Part shown: piece after piece, positions 3,683 to 4,963 of the stretch
How positions within the stretch are numbered: the stretch's first letter is position 1
Layout of the letters: the number at the start of each line of letters is the position of its first letter
Source: a phage
NCBI GenBank assembly: GCA_018175035.1
Contig: GCA_018175035.1_4099.4
Direction: 5' to 3' (one strand)
DNA length: 24,260 nucleotides
Translations under genes and position numbers: made by a program
Notes under the pieces: model-generated
Seen by the model: only the letters and a program-made list of their open reading frames with translations
The model's database searches: none
What the model was told of the DNA's origin: nothing

Positions 3683-3711
3683 ATTATATCAGTACTGAAA
3701 ACTATTGTCCA
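3683..3711 (-). promoter_or_regulatory. sigma70-like promoter TGGACA-N17-TATAAT with TTCAGTACTGA in the spacer
   Basis: Minus strand: TGGACA ATAGTTTTCAGTACTGA TATAAT; the predicted start site falls at about the tRNA-Ser(GCT) 5' end (3676). Confidence 0.55.
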
Positions 3712-4091
3712 GTACTATTTTCGGAAAAAACCTTCTCCAACACTTTAAATATCACAGAATTTAATTCATGCGGAAACACATTTTCATATACTGTTCGTTT
3801 CTGGAATTCATCTGCTTCATCAGCACATAGCTTGAAAGTAATGTATTCAGTACTTAAACTATTTACTATATCTCGTAACGTAGGATATTTTAGTTTTTTT
3901 ATTTCTTTATTTTCTTCTAATGATTCAAAAACAATTTCGTTATCATTAATAATAAACGATTCATCGTTCTCATTAAAAACACGGATTTCTGGGTTATCCT
4001 CACTCCAATTTTTAGAAGCTTTAGATGTTAATTTTGAATTCAAAAATGATTTAAGAAACTCTTCATATTTTGAAATGTCTTTAACACTCAT
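3702..4091 (-). CDS. hypothetical protein, divergent member of the FQxST-motif family (start moved to the first ATG)
   Basis: Track ORF 3702..4148 starts at TTG; first ATG at 4091; contains EADEFQKRTVYENVF. Confidence 0.55.
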   Translation of the reverse strand: MSVKDISKYEEFLKSFLNSKLTSKASKNWSEDNPEIRVFNENDESFIINDNEIVFESLEENKEIKKLKYPTLRDIVNSLSTEYITFKLCADEADEFQKRTVYENVFPHELNSVIFKVLEKVFSENSTGQ

Positions 4092-4170
4092 ATCACCAAC
4101 TTTAATTAAAAAAAAATGGATGGTGACGCTTTTAAACGTCGCTGTCAATTCAGCTTTATAACCACCCGTT

Positions 4171-4380
4171 TTAACTTACCTTTCGGCTACCTTGACGTGG
4201 GGCGTACAGGCTACTAAAAGCAACTTCTGTAAACATATTTCCACGCCTTACCCTTTTAAATAAAAGTCCATCCGGTTTTCCAGTTTGATGAAGGACTGTC
4301 ACCTCTAGTTTAAACCTGCTAGTCAAGTAATAATTGCCTATCGTCCAATTATCAAACCCGTCTAGGTTAACATTCACCAC
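4171..4380 (-). CDS. doubtful CDS (GTG start only), in a stretch that looks GC-richer than its surroundings
   Basis: Track ORF begins with GTG; AGGAAG lies immediately upstream with very short spacing; no in-frame ATG near the start; composition (R/G-rich) is unlike neighbouring proteins. Could instead be a non-coding transcript. Confidence 0.3.
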   Translation of the reverse strand: MVNVNLDGFDNWTIGNYYLTSRFKLEVTVLHQTGKPDGLLFKRVRRGNMFTEVAFSSLYAPRQGSRKVS

Positions 4381-4455
4381 TTCCTAGAGTACCAGAGATC
4401 TTGTTCTGGATTGCATCGACGTAACTTACACCATATACGTCTGATTGTGGAATTC

Positions 4456-4484
4456 ATTTTATCAGTACTGAACTATTTAGTCAA
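4456..4484 (-). promoter_or_regulatory. sigma70-like promoter TTGACT-N17-TAAAAT with conserved spacer AAATAGTTCAGTACTGA
   Basis: Minus strand: CTTGACT AAATAGTTCAGTACTGA TAAAAT; one of three copies of the same cassette. Confidence 0.55.
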
Positions 4485-4524
4485 GTACTTTTTACAAATC
4501 TGGACGTTCATCTTTAAACATATT

Positions 4525-4554
4525 AATATCCTCAGTACTGAATTATTTAGTCAA
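4525..4554 (-). promoter_or_regulatory. degenerate copy of the TTGACT-AAATA(A/G)TTCAGTACTGA cassette (weak -10)
   Basis: Same -35 and spacer as the 4456 and 4936 copies, but the -10 is GGATAT/GATATT; overlaps the 3' end of CDS 4551..4904. Confidence 0.3.
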
Positions 4555-4904
4555 GAATTAATTCGCATTTTTTTGAATTCACCAACCAAGTACTTATAGA
4601 ACTCATAAGTGAACAATGGTTCTTGTACAGTACTCATTTGAAAATATTCTTCTTCTGTCTTTGGTACAGGTGAAGTATATGAAATATAGGGATTATAATC
4701 TTCTTCTACATAAGTAGAAACTTCAACATTAATTGAACTAAGATCTTTATGTAACAAAATGTTTAATATAACAGTTCGTTGGTCAGGAGTTTCTCCATTT
4801 TCCATCCACTGTAAACACAATCTCATCAGTTCATCCCAAATATAAAATTGGAAGTTGTAATCTTCAAGGTTGCGTTTTATTGCTTCTTCATATTCACTAA
4901 ACAT
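4551..4904 (-). CDS. hypothetical protein, FQxST-motif family
   Basis: Track ORF, ATG start; C-terminal EEEYFQMSTVQEP. Confidence 0.7.
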   Translation of the reverse strand: MFSEYEEAIKRNLEDYNFQFYIWDELMRLCLQWMENGETPDQRTVILNILLHKDLSSINVEVSTYVEEDYNPYISYTSPVPKTEEEYFQMSTVQEPLFTYEFYKYLVGEFKKMRINS

Positions 4905-4935
4905 ATCAAGTTGCCATATAAGTTAAGATACAAAC

Positions 4936-4963
4936 ATTATACAGTACTGAACTATTTAGTCAA
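4936..4963 (-). promoter_or_regulatory. sigma70-like promoter TTGACT-N16-TATAAT with conserved spacer
   Basis: Minus strand: TTGACT AAATAGTTCAGTACTG TATAAT; immediately upstream of CDS 4551..4904. Confidence 0.6.

Follow-up and report, generated by a model that had tools for sequence, protein, structure and literature searches.

The stretch of DNA analysed here (24,260 nucleotides (nt); in the following the window) belongs to a jumbo coliphage of the 121Q/PBECO4 type (Asteriusvirus) and matches the phages ELP-22, JP4, SP27, PBECO4 and 121Q with 96-98% identity over 79-88% of its length. It carries six transfer RNA (tRNA) genes and about 56 small open reading frames (ORFs), all of them on the minus strand; the elements described below are therefore read as minus-strand promoters. 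The subject of this study is a set of four sigma70-type promoters that harbour the palindromic octamer CAGTACTG, with the core AGTACT, between their -35 and -10 hexamers. They sit in the tRNA cluster among small ORFs without assigned function, in a region the gene content of which varies between relatives. The palindrome turned out to be the most over-represented word of a complete related genome, and we propose that it may be read by a putative dimeric DNA-binding protein of the phage.

Four promoters with a common palindrome

CAGTACTG is placed identically in all four promoters (4936-4963, 4525-4554, 4456-4484 and 3683-3711), namely 9 nt past the -35 hexamer (Table 1). Three of the four have the 22-nt cassette TTGACTAAATAGTTCAGTACTG in common: a search with the plus-strand 22-mer CAGTACTGAACTATTTAGTCAA found it without mismatch at 4463-4484 and 4942-4963 and with one mismatch at 4533-4554, and none of 100 dinucleotide-preserving shuffles of the window contained a match. 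These three cassettes are paralogous copies of a 22-23-bp unit, (C)TTGACT-AAATAGTT-CAGTACTG. An earlier inspection of the sequence alone (the sequence-only reading) had ascribed to them a common -35 hexamer, a common 17-nt spacer and a common -10 hexamer; the elements are present where it had located them, but the spacer is not uniform and measures 16, 17 or 18, and 17 nt in copies 1 to 3, respectively. The fourth promoter (3683-3711) and the palindromes at 1248-1263 and 1370-1383, which the same reading had linked to the three copies through a shared core, do carry this core.

Copy 1 is located upstream of an ORF for 117 amino acids (4551-4904). The degenerate -10 region of copy 2, which is a recombinant of two cassette copies (A and B) of ELP-22, is followed by the ribosome-binding site GAGGA and a 9-codon ORF (MFKDERPDL). 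Copy 3 and the promoter of tRNA-Ser(gct), here called P4, each have two AGTACT sites, one in the spacer (4464-4469 and 3691-3696, respectively) and one further upstream, which overlaps the first base of the -35 hexamer in copy 3 (4484-4489) and the -35 hexamer in P4 (3711-3716). The tRNA-Ser(gct) gene starts at 3676, and in 121Q the corresponding promoter is a full copy of the cassette. An extended -10 element (TG at -15/-14) is present in 3683-3711 and 4456-4484; it is present neither in 4936-4963 nor in ten promoters with a 16-nt spacer of the related phage TH47, in which the TG abuts the -10 hexamer. A promoter scan, which covered the first 12 kb of the window and scored the matches to the 12 consensus positions of the -35 and -10 hexamers, placed all six of its best matches on the gene (minus) strand. 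Judged from hexamers and surroundings, all four are sigma70-type promoters of a plastic tRNA/ORFan region, read from the gene strand, and the cassettes are predicted early promoters for the host RNA polymerase that also serve as short substrates of homologous recombination. In the relative PA5oct, promoters of the TTGAC/TATAATA type coincide with transcription starts determined by RNA-seq, and growth is sensitive to rifampicin (PMC7318152).

Enrichment of AGTACT in the window and in a complete genome

AGTACT occurs 61 times in the window as compared to 5.9 ± 2.3 expected (maximum of 13 in 100 shuffles). CAGTACTG is the top over-represented octamer (17 versus 0.2 expected), and TTCAGTACTGAA with at most two mismatches is found 19 times (1.8 expected). 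For whole-genome counts the complete relative TH47 was assembled (352,450 bp, 11.7% non-coding). If the palindrome had a function of its own, the sequence-only reading had argued, it should exceed expectation in a complete genome, and it does so by far: AGTACT is the most over-represented hexamer of TH47 (917 versus 119 expected), CAGTACTG is the most over-represented octamer (203 versus 3.6) and TTCAGTACTGAA is present 20 times (0.04 expected). The enrichment climbs with the length of the palindrome, from 7.7-fold for the 6-mer to 56-, 139- and about 500-fold for the 8-, 10- and 12-mers. There is one AGTACT per 385 bp, and the sites span the entire genome, with 1-5.6 per kb in coding DNA (0.33 expected) and an intergenic peak of 6-16 per kb in the promoter-rich region of 80-125 kb. 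The intergenic density exceeds the coding density, and the intergenic share rises with palindrome length, namely 18%, 23%, 26%, 45% and 100% for 6-, 8-, 10-, 12- and 14-mers (three of three in the case of the 14-mers).

Within the genes of TH47, 756 sites were counted in all three frames, compared to 207 ± 14 after shuffling of synonymous codons and 131 after shuffling of the codon order. This indicates that not only codon choice but also amino-acid choice is bent toward AGTACT; each frame lies 3- to 4-fold above the synonymous-codon shuffle. The same two shuffles exclude a codon or dipeptide bias as the cause, and a repeat artefact is excluded by the sequence contexts of the sites, 916 of 917 of which are unique. 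When the sites are oriented by the coding strand, their flanks are two-fold symmetric, with C beside the core (42% and 47%) and T-rich positions next to it, which points to recognition of double-stranded DNA and not of RNA. Neighbours of AGTACT with one mismatch are mostly mildly enriched, and only AGGACT and AGTCCT are depleted. This pattern is in agreement with selection of a degenerate site and speaks against an origin in mutation or repair that converts the neighbours. A repair bias similar to very-short-patch repair was rejected as well, since AGTATT and AATACT, the neighbours that arise by C-to-T changes, show no depletion. The motif has the core AGTACT and an optimum of roughly ttCAGTACTGaa.

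Other palindromes are extremely avoided in the same genome. GCGC is absent from the 352 kb of TH47 (329 expected) and from the window (16 expected). Of the 64 palindromic hexamers of TH47, 26 do not reach one tenth of their expected number, and GATC occurs at 0.5 times the expected frequency in this survey of window and TH47. No description of the AGTACT/CAGTACTG motif was found in the searchable literature, which is itself incomplete, and the papers on CBB, RaK2 and PA5oct do not mention it.

Three further observations were made in TH47. The 70-80 kb bin (L002) has unusually few AGTACT sites (1.0 per kb), as would fit recently acquired DNA. At about 104,425 (L003), in an intergenic position, AGTACTGAATGAT is repeated three times in tandem. 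The Chi sequence of E. coli, GCTGGTGG, is over-represented with 6 and 17 copies on the two strands (0.9 expected on each), mostly on the gene strand; the window has no copy of it.

Conservation and distribution among phages

Between the window and TH47 (87% identity), 46 of 58 AGTACT sites are intact as compared to 52% of all hexamer windows. In codon-aligned orthologues of TH47 and RaK2, 36% of the TH47 sites have AGTACT in the same column; the background is 15%, whether it is taken over all hexamers or over those of equal composition. The respective values for TH47 and GAP32 are 29% of the AGTACT sites and 12% of all hexamers. The sites are thus kept about 2.4 times better than background, i.e. 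they are under purifying selection, and about two thirds of them still turn over while the density is held.

Enrichment was also found in samples of RaK2 (114 versus 16.6 expected in 50 kb), of a Klebsiella Alcyoneusvirus (108 versus 15.7) and of GAP32 (64 versus 10 in 30 kb). Across the sampled genomes of three related genera, Asteriusvirus, Alcyoneusvirus and Mimasvirus, AGTACT ranks first among the over-represented words. Samples of PA5oct (1 versus 10 expected), T4 (3 versus 8.5) and E. coli K-12 (3 versus 11.6 in 50 kb) showed no enrichment, and the phage exceeds the E. coli sample about 40-fold in the density of the motif. In a search for an analogous palindrome in PA5oct just a modest excess of CTGCAG was detected, similar to T4.

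Position of the palindrome in promoters beyond the window

TH47 has 146 near-consensus matches to sigma70 promoters, 134 of which are on the gene strand; in the Klebsiella phage this applies to 22 of 23 matches. The spacers of 19 of the 146 TH47 promoters contain AGTACT, versus about 5-7 expected, and nearly all of these sites begin at spacer position 10, so that either AGTACTG directly precedes TATAAT (16-nt spacers) or AGTACTGN directly precedes the -10 hexamer (17-nt spacers). The rest of the spacer is unrelated in about ten of these promoters. In several of them another AGTACT lies 20-23 bp away, at the upstream border of the -35 hexamer, as is the case in the window at 4456-4489 and 3683-3716, and the two-site layout agtacTTGACA-N9-AGTACT-TA-TATAAT is present in the Klebsiella Alcyoneusvirus, too. 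A role of AGTACT as a marker of gene starts was also considered and rejected: the profile around start codons is flat save for a dip at the ribosome-binding site.

Cassettes as recombination junctions

The cassette locus was compared in the close relatives ELP-22, 121Q, TH47, phAPEC6, Ecwhy_1, Turkey5 and UB. In ELP-22 the order is copy A (promoter of tRNA-Gly and of an ORF for 58 amino acids), copy B (fused to the ribosome-binding site and the 9-codon ORF) and copy C. In the window and in 121Q, A and B are fused to a hybrid that precedes C, a module of 281 bp is absent, and the crossover is located at the 3' edge of CAGTACTG. A single A/C hybrid is found in TH47, phAPEC6 and Ecwhy_1. In Turkey5 the upstream flank of A is joined via one cassette to the flank of tRNA-Ser(gct) (A x P4), with about 850 bp absent, and tRNA-Ser(tga), which in the window is preceded by another promoter (5658-5695), has a full AGTACT cassette in front of it. 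In UB the module is replaced, with its right-hand junction in cassette C, between the -35 hexamer and the palindrome. A deletion in phAPEC6 (window 4094-4418) ends away from any cassette. As judged from these alignments, the cassette copies have recombined repeatedly with one another and have thereby deleted or exchanged the intervening modules. Comparing cassette positions among related phages had been suggested by the sequence-only reading, which had considered a recombination hotspot and had pointed to the promoter-plus-stem-loop cassettes of T4-type phages as mediators of module shuffling; the relatives do differ by nested deletions or module swaps, and the endpoints of these lie in the cassettes.

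In T4-type phages, cassettes of a promoter and a stem-loop (PeSLs) have been tied to module shuffling (PMC2839356, PMC4122927). The cassettes of the window resemble them as short, repeated, near-consensus sigma70 early promoters that are clustered in a plastic ORFan/tRNA region, and in that deletions and swaps between close relatives end in the repeats. They differ in lacking a terminator stem-loop and having a palindrome within the spacer instead, and in the phages that carry them, which are Rak2-like jumbo phages and not Straboviridae. A formal assignment to the PeSLs therefore does not hold: reading of the sequence and a terminator scan gave no stem-loop with a T-run upstream on the gene strand for any of the four cassettes, and only the composite at 1101-1165 has one. 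Likewise, the element at 9960-10042, which the sequence-only reading had counted as a further cassette, belongs to a different family; there is no AGTACT in 9965-10042. This stretch (minus strand) consists of a promoter, TGGACA-N16-(TG)ATATAAT, a 6-codon ORF and a terminator-like hairpin, CCTCAATGATGAGG, with a T-run, and resembles a leader or attenuator or a small RNA. The comparison of the cassettes extends promoter-mediated module shuffling beyond the T4 family and shows that a stem-loop is not needed for it.

A 33-nt composite, GGGTTGACTTCGGTCAGCCCTTTTTGCTATAAT, is present six times in TH47 between 122 and 139 kb (L003). It combines a consensus promoter with a terminator hairpin (TTCG loop) that overlaps the -35 hexamer. 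With this set the phage group possesses a genuine PeSL-like family; the window has no copy of the composite.

Other sites and neighbouring genes in the window

At 1248-1263 the palindrome covers what would be the -35 region of a candidate extended -10 promoter (TGGTACAAT). This promoter might drive a small RNA of about 75 nt (1130-1210, minus strand) that would comprise the hairpin GGATATTGTTGCAACAGTATCC and a T-run and is immediately followed by a consensus promoter (1128-1101).

Table 1 Promoters, palindromes and composite elements located in the window
Feature	Position	Strand	Description
Cassette copy 1	4936-4963	-	-35 TTGACT 4958-4963; CAGTACTG 4942-4949; -10 TATAAT 4936-4941; N16; 11/12
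Cassette copy 2	4525-4554	-	-35 TTGACT 4549-4554; CAGTACTG 4533-4540; degenerate -10 (GGATAT or GATATT); 9/12
Cassette copy 3, two-site promoter	4456-4489	-	-35 TTGACT 4479-4484; -10 TAAAAT 4456-4461; N17; TGn; 10/12
tRNA-Ser(gct) two-site promoter (P4)	3683-3716	-	-35 TGGACA 3706-3711; -10 TATAAT 3683-3688; N17; TGn; 11/12
tRNA-Ser(tga) promoter	5658-5695	-	GGGACA-N16-TATAAT; AGTACT 5658-5663 over predicted transcription start
Perfect 16-bp palindrome TATTCAGTACTGAATA	1248-1263		non-coding stretch
Perfect 14-bp palindrome ATTCAGTACTGAAT	1370-1383		121 bp from the palindrome at 1248-1263
Perfect 12-mer TTCAGTACTGAA	2582-2593		within HNH endonuclease ORF
Perfect 12-mer TTCAGTACTGAA	20057-20068		within an ORF
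AGTACT set, 61 sites	356-24125		46 coding (frames 25, 10, 11) and 15 outside by a simple ORF call
Terminator/promoter composite, PeSL arrangement	1101-1165	-	stem-loop GGATATTGTTGCAACAGTATCC, AGTACTAC; T-run; TTGACA-N16-TATAAT (12/12)

Cassette C (copy 3) is the predicted promoter of a unit without annotation that is about 340 nt long (4105-4449, minus strand) and is closed by a strong terminator (GACGCTTTTAAACGTC and then T9). Roughly 55 nt at the start of this unit are conserved in K64-1, and also in T4-like phages of Proteus, Morganella and Shigella, in which they directly follow a tRNA; phAPEC6 lacks most of the unit. Possibly it represents a stable RNA of the tRNA cluster. The fold of 4095-4449 is not distinctive (z = -1.2), and Rfam gave no match downstream of cassette C or around the palindromes at 1248 and 1370.

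Several other features were noted in the vicinity. The tRNA cluster contains a group I intron (Rfam RF00028, 99 bits) at 3173-3487 (minus strand) that adjoins a free-standing HNH endonuclease ORF for 234 amino acids (2404-3108, minus strand); at this site ELP-22 and 121Q have an uninterrupted tRNA-Met and are about 1 kb shorter, and TH47 has the insertion, too. A C5 cytosine DNA methyltransferase of 629 amino acids (15328-17217, minus strand) is split by an intein with a Hint domain and a LAGLIDADG homing endonuclease; the homologue of ELP-22 has 286 amino acids and no intein. Six paralogous ORFs for 54-60 amino acids that start with MTHEEW are located at 4977-5463, 6134 and 6477-6911 (minus strand). 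Three of the six stand in tandem directly upstream of cassette copy 1; two of the ORFs were scanned, and both fall into PHROG 10970 (function unknown).

A candidate binding site and its alternatives

The sequence-only reading had taken the palindrome for more than a passive spacer, and its over-representation, its two-fold symmetry and the purifying selection acting on it are in agreement with the site of a dimeric protein. We estimate with a probability of about 0.5 that the motif is the site of a putative dimeric DNA-binding protein that is particular to these phages and represses this subclass of promoters. A site 9 nt past the -35 hexamer would cover roughly -21 to -13, and the second site that is often present would lie 20-23 bp upstream at the -35 edge. 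A protein bound at the spacer site would block RNA polymerase, and its likely role would be the shut-off or the timing of early transcription. The approximately 900 weaker intragenic sites may have a further, density-dependent role, e.g. in marking or organising the phage DNA.

Operators between the -35 and -10 hexamers are well known from tetO, from LexA boxes and from KorA/KorB of plasmid RK2. The phage sites resemble these operators of global repressors as perfect palindromes of 12-16 bp at a fixed spacer position that recur at many promoters of one replicon, the best sites being intergenic. They differ from them in that about 98% of the core sites lie outside promoters and most of these within genes, and we know of no repressor for the phage AGTACT sites. 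A second likeness is that to the uptake sequences USS and DUS and to Chi, which are likewise enriched tens- to hundreds-fold, in all frames and at roughly one per kb, and which keep their density although single sites come and go; the phage motif differs from these in being palindromic, hence free of orientation, and viral.

Several findings weigh against a repressor site as the explanation. In TH47 only about 2% of the AGTACT sites are in a promoter position, a point that the sequence-only reading had missed, and together with the flat profile at gene starts this means that regulation of promoters cannot be the main cause of the enrichment. The sequence AGTACTGA in 17-nt spacers also provides the extended -10 element (TGn), which could by itself favour the motif at this place. 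Support from RNA-seq for promoters of this kind comes only from the relative PA5oct, and the transcription starts of the window phage are predicted. No binding protein was found: scans of the ORFs next to the cassettes against Pfam and PHROGs gave an HNH endonuclease and families of unknown function. Finally, the spacer part AAATAGTT is confined to the local paralogous copies (two to four of them), so that this part of the conserved spacer reflects common descent, and the orthologous promoter of K64-1, in front of the conserved RNA, is devoid of the palindrome. The last two findings, and the presence of the 22-mer just twice in all of TH47, would be expected if the shared spacer were a mere trace of recent duplication and the palindrome idle at the promoter. 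We consider this unlikely, since about ten promoters of TH47 with otherwise unrelated spacers have AGTACTG at the identical position, since the two-site layout recurs in another genus, and since the motif is under purifying selection throughout the genome.

AGTACT is the recognition site of ScaI and Eco255I, and phages avoid restriction sites. The phage hexamer is identical to this site and is found among other palindromes that are extremely avoided in the same genome, but departs from the usual avoidance in being enriched 7.7-fold. Tolerance of a ScaI site where 26 other palindromic hexamers have been purged could be understood if AGTACT were the target of a phage DNA methyltransferase and thus a dense epigenetic mark for strand discrimination, replication timing or protection, with methylation tuning the promoters. 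In E. coli, GATC is such a mark for Dam, MutH and SeqA, and one AGTACT per 385 bp resembles the density of GATC in that genome. The phage does encode an N6-adenine methyltransferase of the Dam family (PF05869) and a C5 methyltransferase, but to our knowledge an AGTACT specificity has been described for neither enzyme, and a methylation target needs no enrichment per se. The DNA of RaK2 has been reported to be methylated, but the methylation reported in that paper is of CpG (PMC3622015). On balance, methylation is an improbable basis of the enrichment. The Dam-family enzyme of TH47 (174 amino acids) is encoded at 48196-48720 (minus strand; L001). The C5 methyltransferase of the window was considered as a reader of AGTACT and found no support, the methylation in the RaK2 paper being that of CpG. 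Adenine modification of the Mom type was rejected: RaK2 does have a Mom-family protein (PF25680; L010 35505-36089), but TH47 is enriched without having a homologue.

The recombination data raise the question of whether AGTACT could be a hotspot of recombination or breakage, for example through a phage nuclease or a type II topoisomerase that cuts A/GTAC/T. Five independent junctions fall within cassettes (A x B, A/B x C, A x P4, the replacement in UB and the promoter swap in Turkey5), that of A x B at the 3' edge of CAGTACTG, and the two-fold symmetry would suit a dimeric nuclease or topoisomerase. Yet an identity of 22 bp is enough to explain the junctions, other breakpoints such as those of the 4094-4418 deletion in phAPEC6 are not at AGTACT, the site abuts only about two of some 12 block ends in the window, and T4, which encodes the same type of topoisomerase, shows no enrichment. 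A hotspot thus appears quite unlikely. We also rejected, and give very little credence to, a function of the palindrome at the RNA level (5' stem or nuclease site) and an origin of the motif as a side effect of codon or dipeptide usage. It is true that frame 0 (AGT ACT, Ser-Thr) is the commonest and that the phage encodes tRNA-Ser(GCU) and tRNA-Thr(UGU), but all three frames are 3- to 4-fold above the synonymous-codon shuffle and the sites are denser between genes than within them. The RNA stem at transcript 5' ends that the sequence-only reading had considered is contradicted by the location of the promoter motif upstream of the predicted transcription start and by flanks that are symmetric whatever the direction of transcription. 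The assumption that the sites bind SlmA, the nucleoid-occlusion protein of the host, in order to block cell division was rejected, too, and has next to no probability. The SlmA site of E. coli, GTGAGTACTCAC, is a 12-bp palindrome with the identical AGTACT core, and the enrichment was seen only in the relatives that infect enterobacteria. SlmA requires G1, T2, a purine at position 3, A4 and G5 in each half-site (PMC3020112); the phage motif differs in that the required G1 and the purine at position 3 are missing, with C at position 3 in 47% of the sites and the disfavoured G in 7%. Moreover, GAGTACTC is present three times in TH47 as compared to 3.6 expected, and the degenerate pattern has no match in its 352 kb.

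A phage-specific dimeric protein that binds AGTACT remains our preferred explanation. As a tentative extension of it, the enterobacterial Rak2-like jumbo phages might tag their own DNA with AGTACT, and a phage protein might read this tag to distinguish phage from host DNA and also shut off early promoters. If this is true, the reader of the tag could protect, organise, transcribe or repair the phage DNA. A self-tag written in sequence would be a counterpart of the cytosine modification of T4 and a viral parallel to uptake sequences or Chi. Phage genomes usually lose palindromes and thereby escape restriction enzymes; a single palindrome that is kept at about eight times the expected frequency (56 times for the 8-mer) amid such an extreme loss is a strong and unexpected signal of function. 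The motif thus offers a handle on a DNA-binding or DNA-marking system of poorly understood giant phages, which include candidates for phage therapy.

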